A program made the position numbers and the translations under genes. Positions 2,641-23,697 of a stretch of DNA of 32,000 nucleotides are shown here, one piece after another; position 1 is the stretch's first letter, and every line of letters starts with the position of its first letter. The DNA is from Acholeplasma laidlawii PG-8A (lineage in GTDB: Bacteria; Bacillota_I; Bacilli_A; Acholeplasmatales; Acholeplasmataceae): contig NC_010163.1 in NCBI RefSeq assembly GCF_000018785.1, positions 60,001-92,000 of the forward strand, given 5' to 3'. The notes under the pieces are model-generated. The model was not told where the DNA came from. It saw only the letters and a program-made list of their open reading frames with translations, and made no database searches.

Positions 2641-3219
2641 ATGAATAAAAACAATTTAAAACCATTTATTTTATTAAGCATCTTACCACTTATCTATTTA
2701 GCAAATACATTAGAAACTGCGCTTTTTATGGGGTTAGTTTATGTTGTATTAGCACTTATCATTTATGCTGGTGGTCTATTAATTAATAAATTTAGTGAAG
2801 GTAGAATGCGTTCTTATGCATATATCTTATTAACAGCTTCAATTGTAACAATCATTATGACAGTATTAGGTACATATTTCTCATTAAATCAATTAATGGG
2901 TATTTACTTAGCACTTACAATATTTACAATTCCTCAACTCAGATTAGAAACAGTTGAAGAAAAATCTATTGTGGATCATGGCTTTATGATTCTGGTAGGT
3001 TTTGTAGCACTCATACTCATTGGTTTCTTAAGAGAGTTCTTAGGTACTGGAAGTATTAGTTTACTAGCATTTGGATTAGACACTGTACAAGTGTTTGATG
3101 CTAAATTTGGTATTGCTATCTTAAAAGACAACTCAGGTGGTTTCATCTTAGCAGGATTTATCTTTGCAATCATCAATGCCATACCTTTTGTAAAGGAGGA
3201 TAAAGCAGATGTTATTTAA
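2641..3219 (+). CDS. rnfE: RnfE/NqrD-like membrane subunit (Rnf-Nqr family), cysteine-free
   Basis: 192-aa polytopic protein. N-terminal FILLSILPLIYLANTLETALFMGL aligns by eye with canonical LVQLLGLCPLLAVT...ALGLGL, and GFLREFLGTGSI aligns with GSLREIIGNGTL. It sits between the G-like and A-like genes. Confidence 0.7.
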   Translation: MNKNNLKPFILLSILPLIYLANTLETALFMGLVYVVLALIIYAGGLLINKFSEGRMRSYAYILLTASIVTIIMTVLGTYFSLNQLMGIYLALTIFTIPQLRLETVEEKSIVDHGFMILVGFVALILIGFLREFLGTGSISLLAFGLDTVQVFDAKFGIAILKDNSGGFILAGFIFAIINAIPFVKEDKADVI

Positions 3220-3766
3220 TTTATTATCTAGTTTATTAGGTGCTGCAATCCTTTCAAATGTTATTTTACAAGGGGTTGGATTAGAAGCAATTAAAGATCG
3301 TGAAATCAGAGTTAAACCAGTATTGGTTAAATCTTCAATGATTAGTTTATTAGCACTTGTTGTTTTCTTAATTGATTATGTTGTGTTAGAATTTGTTTTA
3401 GTACCAATTGATATGGCATTTTTAAACATCATCGTATTAGCTTTATTAATGATTGGTGTGAATGAACTTTATAAAATTGTTACTGATAAAACAAAGTTTG
3501 CATTACCTAAAGAAGAATTATTTGGATTACACTCTATTGTGATTATTGTTGGATTTATGGGGTTGTCAAATGTTGCATTTGATGAAGCATTTATCCAAGT
3601 TGTTGGTTCATTAATAGGCTTTGTTGGTCTATCCATATTACTTACAATGATTCAATCTAGAATGCGTGTAAATCCGCTTATCAAGTCATTTAAAGGATTA
3701 CCAATTCTACTCATTATACTGGGCTTAATTGCTTTAGTATTTAGTGGGTTAGCAGGATTATTTTAA
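3209..3766 (+). CDS. rnfA: RnfA/NqrE-like membrane subunit (Rnf-Nqr family), cysteine-free
   Basis: 185-aa polytopic protein. N-terminal AILSNVILQGVGL resembles canonical VLVNNFVLVKFLGLCP. C-terminal FKGLPILLIILGLIALVFSGLAGL resembles [31 protein letters not shown] RBS at 3193-3199. 11-nt overlap with the previous gene. Confidence 0.7.
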   Translation: MLFNLLSSLLGAAILSNVILQGVGLEAIKDREIRVKPVLVKSSMISLLALVVFLIDYVVLEFVLVPIDMAFLNIIVLALLMIGVNELYKIVTDKTKFALPKEELFGLHSIVIIVGFMGLSNVAFDEAFIQVVGSLIGFVGLSILLTMIQSRMRVNPLIKSFKGLPILLIILGLIALVFSGLAGLF

Positions 3767-3790
3767 AAACATATAAAAAGGAAAAAGAAC

Positions 3791-4873
3791 ATGAAAAAAA
3801 TATGGGCAGTTATCAACTTAATATTAATCAGTGTTCTTTTTTCTGCTTGTACACAACAAGCAATTGATAACAGTTTAGCCATATCATCTATGGATACATT
3901 TATTGGTGGCACAGTACATGCACCAAAAGCTGTTTGGGATAAAGCGGATAAAAAACTAAAAGAAATGTATATGCTCTACCACGAGTTAACCGATAACTAT
4001 AGAGGTTATGAGGGTGTACAAGGTGTTTACTATATTAATAATTTAGTAGAAACAACGAAAACTGACCAAACAGTTGAGATTAAAAAAGAACTTTATGATC
4101 TATTAAGTTTAGGTGTAGAACTCTATGAATTTACAGATGGATACTTTGATATGTCCATTGGTAAGATCATCGATGTTTGGAAAAACTTAATTGATGAAAG
4201 TGATTATACGGGTCAAGAAATACCTAAAGAAGATATCGATTATGCGATAAACTTAGTGGATGCTATTGATATCATTGAAGATCCGGTGATTTTAAGTGAA
4301 GTAGATAATAAATATTACGTGACACTTAAATATGGTGCAAAACTAGACTTAGGTGCGCTTGCTAAAGGGTATGTCACTCAGTTAGCAGCAGATTATTTAA
4401 CGGATTTAGGTTTAAGTACCTATCTCATTAGTGGTGGTGGCTCATCCATGTTATATGGTGAAGGTAATCCAAAAACTGAAGATGGTAGTTACAGAACAGG
4501 ACTTATTAATCCACAAGATGTTATTGATAACTTAGATATTATTGGATATCGACCTAAAAATTACGGTATATATACAGCTAAAAATTATAACTTCACAACA
4601 TCAGGAAGTTATAATCAATTTATCTTAAGTGAAGGTGTGATGTATCATCACATTGTCTCACCTAAAACAAAACGTCCGGTAAATCATTATCTAACACTTT
4701 CTATTGTTGGAACAGATGCAGGATTTAATGATGGTTTATCCACAGCATTATTTAGTATGCCACCTGAAGTGTTAGAACAGTTTTTAGAAACGAATGGTTA
4801 TGAGGTCTATACATATTTATTTAATAATACTTATAAATCCTATAATCAATCTGAAAACTTTAGACCACTTTAA
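3791..4873 (+). CDS. apbE: FAD:protein FMN transferase (ApbE/Ftp family) lipoprotein
   Basis: Signal peptide with a lipobox-like LFSAC (Cys20, nt 3848-3850). ApbE-type motifs LDLGALAKGY, TTSGSY and HHIVSPKT. Located immediately after the rnf-like genes. Confidence 0.85.
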   Translation: MKKIWAVINLILISVLFSACTQQAIDNSLAISSMDTFIGGTVHAPKAVWDKADKKLKEMYMLYHELTDNYRGYEGVQGVYYINNLVETTKTDQTVEIKKELYDLLSLGVELYEFTDGYFDMSIGKIIDVWKNLIDESDYTGQEIPKEDIDYAINLVDAIDIIEDPVILSEVDNKYYVTLKYGAKLDLGALAKGYVTQLAADYLTDLGLSTYLISGGGSSMLYGEGNPKTEDGSYRTGLINPQDVIDNLDIIGYRPKNYGIYTAKNYNFTTSGSYNQFILSEGVMYHHIVSPKTKRPVNHYLTLSIVGTDAGFNDGLSTALFSMPPEVLEQFLETNGYEVYTYLFNNTYKSYNQSENFRPL

Positions 4874-4885
4874 TTAGGTGATGAT

Positions 4886-5350
4886 ATGAAGAAAAGAGAT
4901 TATATCATCATTGGTGGACTATTAGTTGTTGTAGGTATACTTTATATTTGGGTTACATATTTTGGTGCCCCAACTGGTAGTATCGCATACGTTTATCAAG
5001 ATAATGATGTGGTAATTAGTGTAAACTTTGATGACAATAGTTATGAGTTAACACCACAAACGATTGATAATAACTATCCAGTTGTTACAGATCCTGTACC
5101 TGATGAGGGTGGCGATGTTGCTTTCATTATTAAGGGTGCTTATATCCATGAAGGTGAAAGAACGTTAGTCTATATCGAAATTGATTGGGATAAAAAGGCA
5201 ATACGTATACAAAAAGATGAAACACCAAGACAAATTGGTGTTAGACGTAATTGGTATGATGGCACAGGTTTACCTGCTGTATCCTTACCAAGTAAAGTAT
5301 TTATCGTATTTGAAACAGTAGAAGATGACGGGATTGATGGTGTTGTATGA
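4886..5350 (+). CDS. Membrane-anchored NusG domain II-like protein
   Basis: N-terminal TM helix followed by a beta-rich domain. The C-terminal stretch KAIRIQKDETPRQIGVRRNWYDGTGLPAVSLPSKVFIVFE matches, from memory, the family pattern (...CPD..C...G....CLP...) with the Cys positions replaced. It lies between apbE and a Gx-transporter gene, which I recall as typical for this family. Confidence 0.5.
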   Translation: MKKRDYIIIGGLLVVVGILYIWVTYFGAPTGSIAYVYQDNDVVISVNFDDNSYELTPQTIDNNYPVVTDPVPDEGGDVAFIIKGAYIHEGERTLVYIEIDWDKKAIRIQKDETPRQIGVRRNWYDGTGLPAVSLPSKVFIVFETVEDDGIDGVV

Positions 5351-5856
5351 AAAACTTAAATAAAATTACAACATTGTCGATGTTAATTGCAGTAGCAATT
5401 GTCTTAAACGTTATTGAAATCTCAATTAATGTCATACCGGTACCAGGTGCAAAAATTGGATTTGCAAATATCGTAACGGTCATTGTCTTATATATGTATG
5501 GATTTAGATCTGCTTCACTTGTTACAATTTTAAGAGTATTCTTAGTAGGGTTACTCTCAAGATCGTTTACCATACCATTTTGGATGGGCTTGGGTGGTGC
5601 AATTGTATCTATTACAGTGATGGGTATCTTTAAAAACTGGATTAAGCTACACTTAATAAGTGTCTCTGTCTTAGGTGCTATTACACATACATTAGGACAA
5701 GTGATTGTAGGGATATATCTATTAGAGACAGACCTACTCATACTCTACTTACCACTGATGTTACTTATTAGCATACCTGCCGGTATTTTAATCGGTATCA
5801 TCGCTCAGAGATTCTTTAAAACATTTAACCGTAGTAAATATCAACGTTCATTATAA
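5347..5856 (+). CDS. Gx transporter family membrane protein (heptaprenyl diphosphate synthase component I-like fold)
   Basis: 169 aa with about 5 TM helices. The N-terminal KITTLSMLIAVAIVLNVIE...GAKIGFANIVTVIVLY pattern is typical of this family. 4-nt overlap with the preceding NusG_II-like gene. Confidence 0.55.
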   Translation: MKNLNKITTLSMLIAVAIVLNVIEISINVIPVPGAKIGFANIVTVIVLYMYGFRSASLVTILRVFLVGLLSRSFTIPFWMGLGGAIVSITVMGIFKNWIKLHLISVSVLGAITHTLGQVIVGIYLLETDLLILYLPLMLLISIPAGILIGIIAQRFFKTFNRSKYQRSL

Positions 5857-7378: not shown

Positions 7379-7489
7379 ACATCCCTATAGGGTATTCTCA
7401 TTCAATATTAAGGATCGAACCTGGTCAGGCCTTGATTGGAGCAGCCATAAGATACCTGATATGTGGATGAGGATACCCTATGGGGATGT
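7379..7489 (+). ncRNA. ffs: Signal recognition particle RNA (small bacterial 4.5S/scRNA type)
   Basis: Long terminal helix: ACATCCCTATAGGGTATTCTCAT (7379-) pairs with ATGAGGATACCCTATGGGGATGT (-7489) using G-U pairs. The apical domain IV-type motif is CCTGGTCAGG...GGAGCAGCCATAAG. Followed by TTTTATT. Position downstream of tadA matches Bacillus. Confidence 0.85.
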
Positions 7490-7562: not shown

Positions 7563-8240
7563 ATGAAAATGTTACCAAAAGATTACGCTAAGGCAGTAGG
7601 CACTCCCTTTAGAGTAGAAAAATATAACGACGCTACCTTAGAAATGTATTATTTAAACGATAGAAGTGATTTCCACAAATTTGCATCACGTGGTAGATTT
7701 TCTGTTTGGACATCAGATGGTGTAAACTATAGACTATTTGTTGAAAAAGGATATTATGAATCAGTCACTGATCTTTATACAAATGAAGTGAACACAATCT
7801 GGTTAGATTTCACAAATACAATCTATGCTCAACAACGTAAAATGTCACGTATGTATATGATGGTATCGATGATTGTATTACTTATTGTATTAGGTGCATC
7901 TATTGGGTTACAACAAATTATTCCCGATCAAGCAGATAATGTTTTTTTAGCTGCAATGGTTGTATTATTTATTGGATTATTTGTTTCATCTAATAGACAA
8001 CAAAAGAAATTAAGAACTTTAGTAAGCGATGAAAATAAAAAAGCAACACAATTAATCAAAGATACATTAGGGGAAACAAGATTCCAAGGTATTTTAGAAG
8101 GTCAAGAAAAATACTACGAAGCATACTACAAATCAGATGATGAAGTCACAGAAGAAGAAGCATCTGAAGAAGAAACACCAACTCAATTAGAAGATTCAGA
8201 AACAGAAAACAATTCAGAAGAAAAGACTAATAAGGAGTAA
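7563..8240 (+). CDS. Hypothetical membrane protein with an acidic C-terminal tail
   Basis: GGAGG RBS at 7550-7554. About 105-aa soluble N-terminal domain, two TM helices ([20 protein letters not shown] and [17 protein letters not shown]), then an E/D/S/T-rich tail ([29 protein letters not shown]). I recognise no family. Confidence 0.6.
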
Positions 8241-8247
8241 AAAAATA

Positions 8248-10203
8248 ATGGATATAAACAAGTTATCTATTGATACGATTCGTTTTTTAGGGATTGACGC
8301 TATTAATAAAGCAAATAGTGGACATCCTGGTATTGTCATTGGTGCTGCACCAATGGCGCATACTCTATTTACAAAACACATCAACATTTATCCAAAGATG
8401 AGTCGCTGGATAAACCGTGACCGCTTTATTCTTTCTGCAGGTCATGGTTCTATGCTACTTTATGCATTAAATCATTTATCGGGTTACAAAGTCTCTATTG
8501 ATGATTTAAAAAACTTTAGAAACTATCCAGGAAATACACCAGGACATCCAGAGTATGGTCATACAGATGGTGTTGAAACAACATCTGGTCCGCTTGGACA
8601 AGGTATTTCTAATGCTGTGGGTATGGCAATTGCTGAAAAGCATTTAGCTGCACGTTTTAATGAACCAAACTTTGATTTAATCAGTCACTATACTTATGTA
8701 TTAGTAGGTGATGGTGACTTACAAGAAGGGGTAGCTTTAGAAGCTATTTCACTTGCGGGACATTTAGGGTTAGGTAAACTTATTGTTTTATATGATTCTA
8801 ATGATATTCAATTAGACGGTGAAACAAATCTAGCAATATCAGAAGATGTTAAAAAGAAGTTTGAAGCACAAAACTGGCACTACACTAAAGTAGAAGACGG
8901 TGAAGATTTAGATCAAATTAACCGCGCTATTTTACGGGCTAAAAAGATCGTTGATAAACCAACCATTATTGAAGTTAAAACAATTATTGGTAGAGGTACA
9001 ACATCAGAAGGTACTTCAAAAGTTCATGGTTCACCTTTAGGGGAAGCTGAACGTGAAAAATTAGCACAAAAATCAGGCTATAACTACAAACCATTTGAAG
9101 TAGACGGTGAAGTATATAGTTTCTATAAGAGCAAAGTATTTAACAAAGGTAAACGTGTCTACAACAAATGGGTTAAGATGTTAGATGCTTATAAAGCACA
9201 ATTCCCAGAAAAACATGATTTATTCAACCAATTCTTAAGTGGAAATATGCAAATAGATTTAAGTAGCCTAGTATATAATGCAGGTTCTAAAGAAGCAACA
9301 CGTAACGTATTAGGTAAAGCTTTAACACTTGCAAGTCATCAAAACTTAAATATTGTTGGTGGATCAGCAGATCTAACTTCATCAACTAAAGCTAAAGGTA
9401 ATGATGGACATTTCAGTAGAGATAATGCTTTAGCAAGAAATATTAACTTTGGTGTTAGAGAACACGCAATGGGTGCTGTAGTTAATGGTATGACACTGCA
9501 TGGTGGTTTAAAATCATTTACAGGTGCATTCTTTGTCTTCTCAGACTATATGAAACCACCAATTCGTTTAGCTGCAATGATGAAAATACCTAGTGTATTT
9601 ATCTTCTCACATGACTCAGTTGCAGTTGGTGAAGACGGTCCAACACATGAACCGATTGAACAACTTATTGGATTACGTAGTATTCCAGATTTAAACGTTA
9701 TTCGTCCAGCGGATGCAAATGAAACAAAAGCAGCAGTTGAGATTGCATTTGAATCTAAAGATACAGCAACAGCGATTATCACTTCTAGACAAAATGTCTT
9801 AAATTTAGAACACACAAGTAAAGAGGGTGTTTTAAAGGGAGCATATATCGTAAGTAAAGAAGAAAACAAATTAGACGGTATCTTATTAGCATCTGGTTCT
9901 GAAGTGGGACTAGCTTATGAAGCAAAACAAATCCTTAAAGAAAAAGGATTAGATATCCGTGTTGTTTCTATGCCATCACATCATGCATTTTTATTGCAAA
10001 ATGAAGACTACAGAAGTAAAATACTTCCGGCAAATGTCAAAACCCTTGCAGTAGAGATGGGATCTAGCTATTCATGGTATAGATTTACACCTCATGTATA
10101 CGGTATTGATACATTTGGACTTTCTGCAAATGCTGATGTGGTATTAAAACATTTCGGCTTTAACAAAGAAAGCATTGCAGAAGCATTTATAAATATTAAA
10201 TAA
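8248..10203 (+). CDS. tkt: Transketolase
   Basis: 651 aa. ThDP motifs [14 protein letters not shown] and [13 protein letters not shown]. Confidence 0.95.
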
Positions 10204-13227: not shown

Positions 13228-13311
13228 GGAGGGGTAGCGAAGTGGCTAAACGCGGCAGACTGTAAATCTGTTCCTAACGGTTCGGCAGTTCGAATCTGCC
13301 CCCCTCCACCA
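13228..13311 (+). tRNA. tRNA-Tyr (GTA), class II with long variable arm, CCA encoded
   Basis: Acceptor stem GGAGGGG/CCCCTCC, anticodon loop CTGTAAA, T-loop TTCGAAT. Confidence 0.93.
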
Positions 13312-13361
13312 TTCTAATTTATAAGTTTATAACGGCCTTGTGCATTTGTTGAAAAAAGTTG

Positions 13362-13390
13362 TTGACAAGGTTATTTTATAATGATAGAAT
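13362..13390 (+). promoter_or_regulatory. rRNA operon promoter
   Basis: TTGACA (13362-13367), 17-nt spacer, extended -10 TGaTAGAAT (13382-13390). Confidence 0.6.
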
Positions 13391-13422
13391 GATTAAGCGC
13401 TCGAACAAAGAGACGCAAAATT

Positions 13423-13453
13423 GAGTCTTTGAAAACTGAATGATGATGAACAA
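13423..13453 (+). other. 5' half of the 16S precursor processing stem
   Basis: GAGTCTTTGAAAACTGAATGATGATGAACAA is nearly complementary to 15068-15097. Confidence 0.7.
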
Positions 13454-13496
13454 GAGAAAACAAAAATAAGAGCTAAAATCAAAACAAAACATAAAT

Positions 13497-15002
<1,506 letters not shown>

Positions 15003-15067
15003 AAGGAGAAAGGCTAACTAACACTTAGCACAAGATGACTACTAGTAAGTAGTAATATTCTCTAAAT

Positions 15068-15097
15068 TTGTTCATCATATTCAGTTTTGAAAGACTT
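15068..15097 (+). other. 3' half of the 16S precursor processing stem (in the 16S-23S spacer)
   Basis: TTGTTCATCATATTCAGTTTTGAAAGACTT pairs with 13423-13453, with one bulge and two mismatches. Confidence 0.7.
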
Positions 15098-15130
15098 AAA
15101 GTAATTTAAGTGTTTCAAGAAGTAAAGAAA

Positions 15131-15166
15131 GTCTTTGAAAAGTAGATAAATGATGTCTGAAAAGAA
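15131..15166 (+). other. 5' half of the 23S precursor processing stem
   Basis: GTCTTTGAAAAGTAGATAAATGATGTCTGAAAAGAA is complementary to 18042-18079, apart from an internal loop. Confidence 0.65.
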
Positions 15167-15170
15167 ATAA

Positions 15171-18021
<2,851 letters not shown>

Positions 18022-18041
18022 TCGTGATGATTCGCATCACA

Positions 18042-18079
18042 TTCTTTTCAGAGAAAATCATTTATCTAGTTTTGAGAGC
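18042..18079 (+). other. 3' half of the 23S precursor processing stem
   Basis: TTCTTTTCAGAGAAAATCATTTATCTAGTTTTGAGAGC pairs with 15131-15166. Confidence 0.65.
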
Positions 18080-18085
18080 ATTATG

Positions 18086-18197
<112 letters not shown>

Positions 18198-18225
18198 ATA
18201 TCATCTCAATTTTATACCATTTTTT

Positions 18226-18301
18226 GGAGGATTAGCTCAGTTGGGAGAGCACCTGCCTTACAAGCAGGGGGTCGGCGGTTCAAGCCCGTCATCCTCCACC
18301 A
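18226..18301 (+). tRNA. tRNA-Val (TAC)
   Basis: Cloverleaf with acceptor GGAGGAT/ATCCTCC and anticodon loop CTTACAA. CCA encoded. Confidence 0.93.
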
Positions 18302-18309
18302 CTTTACAA

Positions 18310-18385
18310 GCCGAAATAGCTCAATCGGTAGAGCAACTGATTTGTAATCAGTAGGTTGCGGGTTCAATTCCTGTTTTCGGCACCA
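18310..18385 (+). tRNA. tRNA-Thr (TGT)
   Basis: Acceptor GCCGAAA/TTTCGGC and anticodon loop TTTGTAA. CCA encoded. Confidence 0.93.
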
Positions 18386-18392
18386 CTACAAT

Positions 18393-18468
18393 GTCCCGTT
18401 AGCTCAGGTGGTAGAGCACTTGACTTTTAATCAAGGTGTCGATGGTTCGAGTCCATCACGGGACACCA
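18393..18468 (+). tRNA. tRNA-Lys (TTT)
   Basis: Acceptor GTCCCGT/ACGGGAC and anticodon loop CTTTTAA. CCA encoded. Confidence 0.93.
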
Positions 18469-18483
18469 CTTTTATAATTTAAT

Positions 18484-18570
18484 GCCCGGGTGGTGAAATC
18501 GGTAGACACGCAGGACTTAAAATCCTGTGGCATAAAAGCCATGTCGGTTCAAGTCCGACCCCGGGCACCA
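18484..18570 (+). tRNA. tRNA-Leu (TAA), class II
   Basis: Acceptor GCCCGGG/CCCGGGC, anticodon loop CTTAAAA and a long variable arm. CCA encoded. Confidence 0.93.
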
Positions 18571-18592
18571 CTAAAAAATTAATTAAATTGTT

Positions 18593-18668
18593 GGGGCTTT
18601 AGCTCAGCTGGGAGAGCGCCTGCCTTGCACGCAGGAGGTCAGCGGTTCGATCCCGCTAAGCTCCACCA
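18593..18668 (+). tRNA. tRNA-Ala (TGC)
   Basis: Acceptor GGGGCTT/AAGCTCC with the G3:U70 identity pair, and anticodon loop CTTGCAC. CCA encoded. Confidence 0.93.
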
Positions 18669-18713
18669 GTTTACGATTTTAATCAAGTATCAAAAAGTTT
18701 CTAACCAATATAT

Positions 18714-18790
18714 GGCGGTGTAGCTCAGCTGGCTAGAGCGTGCGGTTCATACCCGCAAGGTCGAGGGTTCAAGTCCCCCCGCCGCTACCA
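18714..18790 (+). tRNA. tRNA-Met (CAT), elongator type
   Basis: GGCGGTGTAGCTCAGCTGGCTAGAGCG... with anticodon loop TTCATAC. It closely resembles the Bacillus elongator Met as I remember it. Confidence 0.8.
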
Positions 18791-18794
18791 GTAC

Positions 18795-18871
18795 GGACCC
18801 GTAGCTCAGTTGGTTAGAGCTACCGGCTCATAACCGGTCGGTCGTTGGTTCGAGTCCAACCGGGTCCACCA
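18795..18871 (+). tRNA. tRNA-Ile2 (CAT, lysidine-dependent), assigned by similarity
   Basis: GGACCCGTAGCTCAGTTGGTTAGAGC...GGCTCATAACC... resembles Bacillus tRNA-Ile(CAU) and the tRNA-Ile(GAT) body. It lies in the Met-Ile-Ser order. Confidence 0.7.
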
Positions 18872-18893
18872 GTATTAACTTTTAAATAAACGT

Positions 18894-18982
18894 GGAGGAA
18901 TACCCAAGAGGCTGAAGGGATCGGTCTTGAAAACCGACAGGGTGTAAAAGCCGCGGGGGTTCAAATCCCTCTTCCTCCGCCA
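18894..18982 (+). tRNA. tRNA-Ser (TGA), class II
   Basis: Acceptor GGAGGAA/TTCCTCC, anticodon loop CTTGAAA and a long variable arm. CCA encoded. Confidence 0.93.
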
Positions 18983-19003
18983 CTACAATTTTAAAACCAG
19001 TTA

Positions 19004-19012
19004 TGGTATAAT
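19004..19012 (+). promoter_or_regulatory. Candidate internal extended -10 promoter ahead of tRNA-fMet
   Basis: TGgTATAAT at 19004-19012 in the 40-nt Ser-fMet spacer. The same TGGTATAAT occurs in the yccF-like promoter at 19335-19343. Confidence 0.4.
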
Positions 19013-19022
19013 AACAACATAT

Positions 19023-19099
<77 letters not shown>

Positions 19100-19114
19100 A
19101 ATAAAATTTAAAAC

Positions 19115-19190
19115 GGTCCGGTGGTGTAGGGGTTAACATGCCTGCCTGTCACGCAGGAGATCGCGGGTTCAAATCCCGTCCGGACCGCCA
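19115..19190 (+). tRNA. tRNA-Asp (GTC)
   Basis: Acceptor GGTCCGG/CCGGACC and anticodon loop CTGTCAC. CCA encoded. Confidence 0.93.
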
Positions 19191-19197
19191 TTTTAGT

Positions 19198-19273
19198 GGC
19201 TCTGTAGCTCAGTCGGTAGAGCAGTGGCCTGAAGAGCCTCGTGTCAGCGGTTCGATTCCGCTTGGAGCCACCA
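19198..19273 (+). tRNA. tRNA-Phe (GAA)
   Basis: Acceptor GGCTCTG/TGGAGCC (two G-U pairs) and anticodon loop CTGAAGA. There is a U28-U42 mismatch in the anticodon stem. CCA encoded. Confidence 0.88.
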
Positions 19274-22281: not shown

Positions 22282-23697
22282 TTGAAAGAAAATTTTATCA
22301 GAGGAACATACCTCGAAGTAGATTTTGACAAACAAATCATAACACATCAACAAGATGTAGAAACCATCAAAAATATATTGAATGATATCATCAACACCAA
22401 GAATGAAGCATATATTAATAGGTATCATCAGGGATTTTTAGATATTAACGATCCGGATATACTGGATACACTACCTAAGATAGTAGAAATGCTTGAACAA
22501 CAATTTATAGAGTCTATCAAAGTAAACTCTACGCTATCAAGCGTGATATCCAACTTTATTATAAACTTGGAAGTTTTATCCAGTTATCATGAAGATATAA
22601 TAAGTTATATGTGGGAAATACTAGATGAAATGCACACTAGAATGTATTATAGTCTACTAGATAGTCAAACAAAGTTAGTAATTGAAATGAAAAATTTTCA
22701 ACCCAAATACTTATTTGATTTACCAGATAATGTTATAGGCATACTTTATAAAGATAGACCAAGTTCATTAGAAATTGATATTCTGGATTCAAAATGCATC
22801 GCATGTTTGGCATCAAGAGATACCTATAAAATAGGTAGTAGTTATAAATTTAAGAAATATGATTTAGGATTACTACCGGGTTTAGAACTTGAATATACTA
22901 AACTAACTAGAAAAGACAGAGGCAAATTCCAGTTAGGACTAGCCATACATAAGCTGTCGCAAATACATAAAGCCAAGCATGTAGATCCAGATTTTGTTAT
23001 AGTAGAACCAGAAAAAGGATATATTCAAACCTCTGGTGTTGCTTGTCTAGCAAGGAGACAGGTGTTTTATAAGAAATTATTTGAAACCTTTCCAAATAGT
23101 GATATACTCATTACTTTACCAAAGCTAGAATTACTTGATGTATACTTTAGTCAAGGTAATGAAACGAAACTAGATGTAACAACTATCACTAATCATTCAA
23201 ATATTTATGAAATTGAACTAAAATCAGCATTTAAAACACCAAATGATCGTGTATGTATTACAATTCCTGATATTGAAGACGTCAACGAATTCAATCAAAT
23301 AAAGAAATATCTAGAACATTTTAGTATTAAAAAGTTTGGATATAAGTTAAAAATTGGCTTAGAGGTAAATACAGAGTATAGTAGTTTGAATTTATCAGCT
23401 TTCAAAGGTTTTGAGTACGCCATCATAGATTTAGATAAAAGATTTGAATTATTACTACCGGATGAGGTCAATAGTATTAAATATGCTTTACAACATTCGG
23501 ATTTAAGAAATATATTGTATAGAAAATCTAAAAGAACCTATGCGATGGGAAAAGATCTATATAATCCAGACTTTGTACAAAAACTCATATATAGAGGATT
23601 TAGAAAATTTACAATAAAACCCGAACTTTTTCCACTATATAGTGAGATCATTTATCGATATAATCAAGGTGAGAGATTATACGGTAAAACAGTGTGA
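22282..23697 (+). CDS. Hypothetical 471-aa protein with weak PEP-utilizing enzyme (PTS Enzyme I/PPDK)-like features; catalytic residues not conserved
   Basis: TTG start 6 nt after an AAGGGAG RBS. The C-terminal strings KIGLEVNTEYSSLNLSAFKGFEYAIIDLDKRFELLL and YAMGKDLYNPDFVQKLIYRGFRKFTIKP resemble the EI strings VGVMVE...VDFFSIGTNDLTQY and TGMCGELAGD...GLDEFSMS. Confidence 0.35.
   Translation: MKENFIRGTYLEVDFDKQIITHQQDVETIKNILNDIINTKNEAYINRYHQGFLDINDPDILDTLPKIVEMLEQQFIESIKVNSTLSSVISNFIINLEVLSSYHEDIISYMWEILDEMHTRMYYSLLDSQTKLVIEMKNFQPKYLFDLPDNVIGILYKDRPSSLEIDILDSKCIACLASRDTYKIGSSYKFKKYDLGLLPGLELEYTKLTRKDRGKFQLGLAIHKLSQIHKAKHVDPDFVIVEPEKGYIQTSGVACLARRQVFYKKLFETFPNSDILITLPKLELLDVYFSQGNETKLDVTTITNHSNIYEIELKSAFKTPNDRVCITIPDIEDVNEFNQIKKYLEHFSIKKFGYKLKIGLEVNTEYSSLNLSAFKGFEYAIIDLDKRFELLLPDEVNSIKYALQHSDLRNILYRKSKRTYAMGKDLYNPDFVQKLIYRGFRKFTIKPELFPLYSEIIYRYNQGERLYGKTV

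Follow-up and report, generated by a model that had tools for sequence, protein, structure and literature searches.

A 32,000-nucleotide (nt) stretch of the Acholeplasma laidlawii PG-8A chromosome (NC_010163.1, positions 60,001 to 92,000; hereafter the window) carries on its forward strand an Rnf-type operon that has no rnfB gene and whose two paired membrane subunits, an RnfE/NqrD-like protein (2641-3219) and an RnfA/NqrE-like protein (3209-3766), have no cysteine at any of the four positions that ligate the intramembrane [2Fe-2S] cluster in canonical relatives. The cofactor motifs of RnfC, RnfD and two RnfG-like proteins are present, the E-like and A-like genes are under purifying selection, and among related genomes the cysteine ligands are missing together with rnfB and with a small gene that we call X70. 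The explanation we favour, and consider probable while leaving considerable room for others, is that the operon encodes a half-Rnf: a conduit taking electrons one way from NADH, via RnfC and RnfD, to extracellular flavin mononucleotides (FMNs), with E and A persisting as a cluster-free scaffold.

Four ligand columns without cysteine

The 192-amino-acid (aa) E-like and 185-aa A-like translations contain no cysteine codon, as the original prediction had stated, and the motifs it quoted at the ligand sites (LLSILP and IFTIPQ in the former, GVGLEAI and HSIVIIVG in the latter) are found, as are the family signatures GFLREFLGTGSI and FKGLPILLIILGLIALVFSGL. The zero count is not significant per se: cysteine makes up 0.24% of residues across the 24 long open reading frames (ORFs) of the window, the probability of finding none in 377 aa is P=0.40 at that frequency, and the 651-aa transketolase (8248-10203) has none either, which bears out the accompanying caveat that this organism is cysteine-poor. 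The remarkable signal is positional. In Clostridium tetanomorphum, whose numbering we use, RnfA Cys25 and Cys113 and RnfE Cys26 and Cys109 are the invariant [2Fe-2S] ligands (Vitt et al.; PMC9588780). We located these columns by pairwise HMMER, MAFFT, hhalign and alignment through intermediate homologues. Every method places Leu15 (2683-2685) at the RnfE Cys26 column. MAFFT and hhalign put Ile97 (2929-2931) at the RnfE Cys109 column, for which pairwise HMMER leaves a gap after Thr96 and before Ile97. The RnfA Cys25 column holds Glu26 (3284-3286). The fourth column, RnfA Cys113, is ambiguous in register, being Val114 (3548-3550) by HMMER and MAFFT and Ser109 by hhalign and the intermediate homologues, which set His108 opposite Asn112 (His108-Ser109, 3530-3535); none of the registers brings a cysteine to it. 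Every canonical relative aligned has cysteine at all four columns, except that one RnfA ends before its first ligand column. The loss at conserved ligand positions that had been proposed is thus upheld.

In canonical Rnf, electrons pass reversibly from ferredoxin to RnfB, to the A/E [2Fe-2S] cluster, to the RnfG FMN outside, to the RnfD flavins, to RnfC and finally to NAD+ (PMC12174285). This path is broken in A. laidlawii, because the A/E pair, with no cysteine at these columns, cannot ligate the canonical intramembrane [2Fe-2S] cluster. The RnfC of the same operon retains 12 cysteines, including two complete CxxCxxCxxxCP motifs.

Such an argument requires that the two proteins belong to the Rnf-Nqr family, a point on which the original prediction had offered itself as open to refutation and on which homology is upheld. 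The E-like protein scores 39.6 bits against Pfam PF02508 and 42.8 bits against NCBIfam rnfE (cutoff 213), and it carries the REFLGTG signature; the A-like protein, with its C-terminal FKGLP...GL signature, scores 32.3 bits against NCBIfam rnfA (cutoff 229) and has no Pfam match. The best solved relatives by pairwise HMMER are the RnfE (3.9e-8) and RnfA (1.2e-7) of C. tetanomorphum, and profile-profile comparison with canonical relatives by hhalign gives probabilities of 98.9% (E) and 99.6% (A). An AlphaFold2 (AF2) model of the E-like protein has a predicted local distance difference test score (pLDDT) of 76, and its top 11 Foldseek matches are all RnfE or NqrD, with template-modelling (TM) scores of 0.57-0.67. 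The A-like protein is modelled with low confidence, at a pLDDT of 64 that drops under 50 over the first transmembrane helix (TM1); its top three matches are RnfA. Thus, hhalign and Foldseek identify the paired RnfA/RnfE six-helix fold of PF02508 at NCBIfam scores far below the cutoffs, and family membership is genuine, though remote.

Joint loss of the ligands, X70 and RnfB

The A. laidlawii operon has the order glyA-rnfC-rnfD-G1-G2-E-A-apbE-NusG_II-eetB. A scan of one genome per species yielded 46 loci, in which ORFs were classed by phmmer with A. laidlawii and Peloplasma proteins as references, and two main groups emerge that have the synteny from glyA to the PF07456 gene (eetB) in common. 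Group 1 consists of A. laidlawii, A. granularum, A. oculi, A. equifetale and five lineages known from metagenome-assembled genomes (MAGs). It has no cysteine at any of the four columns, the E subunit reading Leu, Ala or Phe and then Ile, Leu or Val, the A subunit Glu and then His-Ser or Val/Ile, and there is no gene between rnfA and apbE. Group 2, comprising about 32 loci that include Peloplasma aerotolerans, Mariniplasma and Izemoplasmatales, keeps the four cysteines invariant and has the X70 gene and a mini-rnfB between rnfA and apbE. The corresponding position in A. laidlawii is the 24 nt between the stop of the A-like gene and the start of apbE (3767-3790).

X70, found in about 30 Group 2 loci (L031:11154-11366 in Peloplasma), is a conserved protein of 68-76 aa that has a single membrane helix and carries the motif PESC-x10-C-x2-C-x(7-12)-C. 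It has no significant match in Pfam or NCBIfam, only sub-threshold ones to 'FeoB-associated Cys-rich membrane protein'; homology to NqrM (DUF539) was considered and rejected for lack of a significant family match, which leaves an architectural analogy. The Group 2 RnfB, of 105-106 aa (L031:11363-11683 in Peloplasma), consists of a membrane helix and a single PF04060 [4Fe-4S] domain and aligns with the N-terminal part of RnfB in 9eri_B at 1.5e-12. An RnfB with FdI only is known from Thermotoga maritima (PMC9588780). The mini-RnfB of Peloplasma, Mariniplasma and Izemoplasmatales has no ferredoxin-like domains, and the paper describing Peloplasma, in which rnfCDGEAB is presented as in Clostridia, implies an RnfB of the A. 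woodii type.

X70 and mini-RnfB are present in every cysteine-containing locus in which the rnfA-apbE junction is visible and absent from every cysteine-less locus in which it is visible. The latter are Group 1 and three further loci of the same synteny, L007, L057 and L063, where rnfA likewise adjoins apbE. Inspection at the operon level found no rnfB in any locus of Acholeplasma sensu stricto. In a neighbour-joining tree of RnfC and RnfD (783 columns, 200 bootstraps), Group 1 is recovered as a clade in 200/200 replicates, the cysteine-less lineages all come together in only 1/200, and L057 is placed within the cysteine-containing clade in 181/200. Since the tree splits the cysteine-less lineages and the outgroups contain cysteine, this indicates that the ligands and rnfB/X70 were probably lost together at least three times independently. 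Sequence divergence also differs along the operon: between A. laidlawii and Peloplasma, RnfC is 68% and RnfD 56% identical, E and A 32% each, while Peloplasma RnfA is 47% identical even to a Methanosarcinales RnfA. It fits this difference between E/A and C/D that E and A may have been released from a cofactor constraint while still being selected for another role.

It is conceivable that the canonical ferredoxin:NAD+ function has been kept by unconventional means, with an RnfB encoded elsewhere and with a non-cysteine metal centre or direct tunnelling through E and A. Genome papers do credit Acholeplasma with 'the Rnf complex' (PMC4221730, PMC5861303), a Glu stands at one ligand column with a His/Ser pair at or near another, and the absence of rnfB is established for the operon and not for the whole genome. 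However, the E subunit has only Leu and Ile to offer at its columns, and we know of no [2Fe-2S] centre without any cysteine ligand. The clean partition of rnfB and X70 between cysteine-less and cysteine-containing lineages and the low identity of E and A relative to RnfC and RnfD also speak against it. In addition, a word-limited search with mini-RnfB of a database that includes A. laidlawii proteins gave no match from Acholeplasma sensu stricto among the best 120 of 166 relatives. We consider such a function very improbable.

Loss of the ligands extends beyond the family. A profile search of 1.84 billion representative proteins returned 468 matches, and in an alignment of 151 E subunits (the window protein and the best 150) both cysteines are absent from 48, both are present in 74 and one is present in 20; these are counts and not frequencies, since the query profile is cysteine-less and the ranking favours proteins of that kind. 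Many cysteine-less sequences are nearer to cysteine-containing ones than to one another, which indicates that cysteine-less E proteins are likely polyphyletic. Three unrelated cysteine-less lineages carry an RnfD with an FMN_bind (RnfG) domain fused to its C-terminus. In L059 the order is RnfC, the fusion (L059:5835-7250), E, A and operon end; in L060 it is RnfC, the fusion (L060:5543-7039), an FMN_bind protein, E, A and operon end; and in L061 it is cydA, cydB, the fusion (L061:5811-7301), E, A and a second RnfD-like gene. No RnfB is found in these three contexts, and RnfC is not in view at L061. The fusion of G to RnfD would be consistent with a G that no longer shuttles to the A/E cluster. 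L060 derives from a Clostridiaceae MAG of 53% GC; because this unrelated lineage is also cysteine-less, a low-cysteine composition as the cause of the loss is ruled out.

A further arrangement occurs in a Bacillota MAG (L054:8018-11135), where a 631-aa RnfD-family protein with a 330-aa C-terminal extension without assigned family is followed by an E-like protein without both cysteines and an A-like protein retaining the second cysteine only.

The retained redox half and its possible function

The remaining subunits keep the features expected of electron carriers. In RnfC (432 aa), GLGGSGFP together with CIHCASCVYSCP and CIECGLCSFVCP make up the NADH/FMN site and two [4Fe-4S] motifs. RnfD (356 aa), the C-terminal 262 codons of which lie at 2-787 with the gene start 283 nt before the window, contains PF03116 (212 bits) as its sole domain and has a flavinylation motif, DAAAGAT, at 206-226. 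G1 (313 aa, 784-1725) has an N-terminal membrane anchor and two RnfG/FMN_bind-like modules, a weak, sub-cutoff Pfam FMN_bind match (E=0.0054) and the flavinylation-type motifs DGAAGAT (1210-1230) and DGNAGAT (1627-1647). Its paralogue G2 (305 aa, 1722-2639; paralogy E=1e-12; 32% identical to Peloplasma G2) has the same layout, with DGAAGAT (2139-2159) and the conserved variant DSTTGPT (2553-2573), so that RnfD, G1 and G2 together bear five motif instances. The Peloplasma orthologue of G1 passes the Pfam FMN_bind cutoff. Sequence searches of the Protein Data Bank (PDB) with G1 and G2 gave no meaningful match, G2 has no Pfam match, and the two halves of G1 have no detectable mutual similarity. 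In one Acholeplasma MAG (L013:5026-7242), G1 reaches 738 aa; it bears a third flavinylation-type motif (DGNAGAS, residue 424), is extended at its C-terminus by a long additional region and thus resembles multi-flavinylated surface proteins.

Two genes downstream complete what is needed for ApbE-dependent extracytosolic flavinylation of these motif-bearing targets: an ApbE-type FAD:protein FMN transferase (360 aa, 3791-4873; PF02424, 147.6 bits) with a lipoprotein-like N-terminus (LFSAC) and an EetB-like protein of the ECF-S type (169 aa, 5347-5856; PF07456, 118.3 bits). The PF07456/EetB family protein of Listeria binds FAD and is needed for its export for ApbE/FmnB flavinylation (PMC9973259). 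Between the two lies the gene of a membrane-anchored NusG_II-domain protein (154 aa, 4886-5350; PF07009, 39.8 bits), which is always found beside apbE and eetB, a synteny kept in all loci of this operon.

These genes are not simply being left to decay. Comparing two A. laidlawii strains (dS ~0.1) gives an omega of 0.069 for the E gene and 0.110 for the A gene; at such values (0.07-0.11) both must be regarded as functional genes under purifying selection. Between species omega is 0.06-0.28 for E and A, close to G1, G2 and ApbE, while the strongest constraint in the operon is on RnfC (0.015-0.065 in the four pairs that had diverged adequately). At least nine species-level lineages, diverged down to 47% (E) and 49% (A) identity, have the operon intact and syntenic. 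A decaying relic, or a non-redox role for E and A or for the whole operon, would explain why E and A score far under their family cutoffs, and two damaged copies of the operon might be read in the same way. In the complete genome of A. laidlawii strain 8195 (CP126461.2), rnfC has an in-frame stop at codon 71 (IHSTVSG to IH*TVSG, L010:5986-5988), which may inactivate the operon there unless it is a sequencing error, and in another A. laidlawii assembly, GCA_001729645.1, two ORFs of 181 and 97 aa stand in place of an unbroken G2 (L004:9082-9999). The selection on E, A and RnfC and the conservation of the operon across lineages argue against this, as does the presence of the RnfC iron-sulfur and nucleotide motifs, the RnfD and G motifs, ApbE and EetB. 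We therefore find no support for the non-redox role that the original prediction had entertained and regard decay or repurposing of this kind as quite improbable.

The other option raised there, that electrons cross the membrane by another route, survives in spirit: the route would be the normal half of Rnf, from RnfC through the RnfD FMN to the G FMNs. It does not survive in the form proposed, a crossing by way of extra FMN domains, which are extracellular and predate the cysteine loss. Doubled, two-module G proteins occur in both groups, including about 30 sister operons with all four cysteines, therefore G doubling came before cysteine loss, and compensation for the lost cysteines by the doubled G was rejected. 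The explanation is likely the loss of an entire ferredoxin branch rather than compensation by FMN domains.

The following scenario is the one that we find probable. The ancestral operon of the Acholeplasmataceae would have encoded the full loop, from ferredoxin through mini-RnfB, the RnfA/RnfE [2Fe-2S] cluster, RnfG FMN and RnfD FMN to RnfC and NAD+, and in Acholeplasma sensu stricto the whole ferredoxin branch (rnfB, X70 and the four ligand cysteines) would have been removed jointly. Cytoplasmic NADH would now be oxidised at RnfC (FMN and two [4Fe-4S] clusters), electrons would cross the membrane via the covalent FMN of RnfD and arrive at three to four covalent FMNs on two surface-exposed G proteins, and they would leave to an external acceptor, for example O2, Fe(III), free flavin or a surface reductase. 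The outside flavins would be loaded by the ApbE and the EetB-type FAD exporter of the same operon. E and A would no longer carry electrons and would persist as a membrane scaffold that is possibly ion-binding. We favour such a one-way conduit because RnfB and the A/E cluster are gone while the motifs of RnfC, RnfD and the G proteins, ApbE and EetB are retained. Canonical Rnf can run physiologically in the direction NADH to RnfC to RnfD to RnfG, and one-way NQR/RNF-like systems have been proposed (PMC12174285, PMC8238504). We infer the direction of flow, the identity of the acceptor and the restriction of E and A to a scaffold.

Several points weigh against this scenario. The G proteins are very divergent, and their assignment to RnfG and their flavinylation follow from motifs and position only. 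No candidate reductase lies within the window. The absence of rnfB holds at the operon level and not genome-wide. Lateral replacement of the E-A-X-B cassette may be an alternative to repeated loss, the neighbour-joining tree being a simple one. The nonsense codon in rnfC of strain 8195 and the split G2 raise the possibility that the system may be dispensable in culture. Finally, polar residues at or beside the former ligand site of the A subunit (Glu26, His108 and Ser109) are conserved, which suggests that E and A might do more than serve as a scaffold.

The last point opens the way to an ion-motive complex, in which the cluster site would have been replaced by a polar or carboxylate site and E and A would bind or conduct Na+ or H+ in a manner coupled to electron flow. 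Glu26 stands exactly at the RnfA Cys25 column and a Glu is found there in all nine Group 1 lineages, with Asp in L057, L059 and L061; His108-Ser109, opposite the canonical Asn112-Cys113, is invariant in Group 1; the purifying selection on E and A is comparable with that on ApbE, G1 and G2; and in canonical Rnf and NQR the redox state of the cluster is thought to drive the switch of A/E between inward and outward states (PMC12174285). However, an acidic residue at this column is not universal (Thr in L056 and L063, Pro in L007, Gly or Met in L060, Leu in one Acholeplasma-type homologue), the E subunit contributes just Leu and Ile, and without the cluster there is no evident redox trigger for the switch. 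The A-subunit model, at its low confidence, is too poor to support the geometry of Glu26, His108 and Ser109. We view ion coupling as unlikely on balance, yet worth keeping in sight. A bolder version, which we hold to be somewhat less likely still, would make cluster-free RnfA/E the mark of a recurrent new class (RnfC-D-G-E-A without RnfB) whose pocket has been rebuilt as a carboxylate/His/Ser ion site, acting as an NADH-driven, flavin-only ion pump or as an ion-gated exporter. In A. laidlawii it would correspond to the long-known membrane-bound NADH oxidase of this organism, an activity on which literature searches gave nothing usable.

Genomic setting, known systems and implications

The window begins inside rnfD, and rnfC and glyA lie upstream of it, as seen on LS483439.1, a 1.50-Mb A. 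laidlawii chromosome (GCA_900476025.1) that encodes an identical E-like protein. Coordinates in locus L001 correspond to window coordinate x + 7360. The A-like gene overlaps the E-like gene by 11 nt. The serine hydroxymethyltransferase gene glyA is directly 5' of rnfC in essentially all Acholeplasmataceae loci, cysteine-less or not (L001:4530-7074), with a gap of 16 nt in A. laidlawii; ppa-yebC is found 5' of glyA, and folD still farther 5' in three loci. The other genes of the window are housekeeping genes: L31, thymidine kinase, a deaminase, the signal recognition particle (SRP) RNA at 7389-7482, transketolase, gidA/gidB, an rRNA operon, a tRNA array and ribosomal proteins. Positions 13228-19270 comprise a tRNA, a full 16S-23S-5S rRNA operon (13497-18197) and an array of 11 tRNAs. 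Two ORFs, at 7563-8240 (225 aa, with an acidic Glu-rich tail) and 22282-23697 (471 aa), matched no Pfam family.

The operon resembles canonical Rnf (RnfABCDGE; 7ZC6, 8AHX, 9ERI) in its gene order rnfC-D-G-E-A, its RnfC motifs, the flavinylation motifs of RnfD and G and the homology and fold of E and A, but it is without rnfB and the four cysteines, has a doubled G with two modules each, and its E and A score far below the cutoffs. The Rnf of sister-clade Acholeplasmataceae and Izemoplasmatales is closer still, having the glyA-to-eetB synteny, the doubled G and the RnfC and RnfD identities given above, yet it keeps four cysteines, mini-RnfB and X70 where A. laidlawii has a 24-nt gap. Na+-NQR has a homologous NqrB/C/D/E core and arose through rnfB loss (PMC12174285). 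In that case, however, RnfB was exchanged for NqrF, the four cysteines and the [2Fe-2S] cluster were kept and NqrA is cofactor-free, whereas in A. laidlawii RnfB has no replacement, the cysteines are gone and the RnfC iron-sulfur motifs remain. No NqrF-like gene is present in the locus and the first subunit is an iron-sulfur RnfC, so the operon does not encode a Na+-NQR.

The NQR/RNF-like systems (Meheust 2021, Huang 2024) share with our proposal the idea of a single transmembrane path, along which electrons move one way from cytosolic NAD(P)H to a flavinylated FMN-binding domain outside the cytosol (PMC8238504, PMC10979944). Those systems have two subunits, one joining an RnfD/NqrB domain to an NqrF-type NAD-binding domain (PF00175) and the other homologous to RnfG/NqrC; RnfC, RnfA and RnfE are missing and the RnfD flavinylation site has been lost, whereas in A. 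laidlawii RnfC is the NADH module, the RnfD motif is present and cluster-free E and A are retained. Since the RnfD-NqrF-type fusion is absent from A. laidlawii and RnfC is a separate protein, the operon falls outside the definition of Meheust. The extracellular electron transfer (EET) system of Listeria (FmnB/ApbE, PplA, EetA/B, FmnA, Ndh2) likewise has ApbE and PF07456 genes beside multi-motif surface proteins, but its input is via Ndh2 and quinone, while in A. laidlawii the crossing module is RnfC/RnfD and no Ndh2 or quinone genes are found in the locus.

The cysteines and the [2Fe-2S] cluster of RnfA/E (NqrD/E) have been termed invariant or strictly conserved (PMC9588780, PMC12174285), and Acholeplasma has been credited with 'the Rnf complex' not only in genome papers but also in a major review (PMC4221730, PMC5861303). 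The literature searched, whose coverage is incomplete so that an earlier mention is possible, contains no description that we could find of cysteine-less RnfA/E or of RnfCDGEA operons without RnfB. The cysteine-less A/E proteins contradict the published description of the cysteines as invariant. Metabolic reconstructions probably err when they endow Acholeplasma and genomes like it with ferredoxin:NAD+ coupling and Na+/H+ pumping, and cluster definitions that demand RnfB or an RnfD-NqrF fusion overlook the RnfB-less class, an annotation gap that concerns Mollicutes and other genomes. For the bioenergetics of Rnf and NQR, the cluster-free A/E proteins provide a test system for a role of the A/E dimer other than electron transfer and for the ion path. 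RnfB and the A/E cluster appear to have disappeared jointly on three or more occasions within one family and also in Clostridia-type lineages, a natural experiment which provides comparative evidence that they work as a single functional module. The RnfC-RnfD-RnfG half, in turn, appears to be stable alone, plausibly as a one-way exporter of electrons from NADH to the cell surface.

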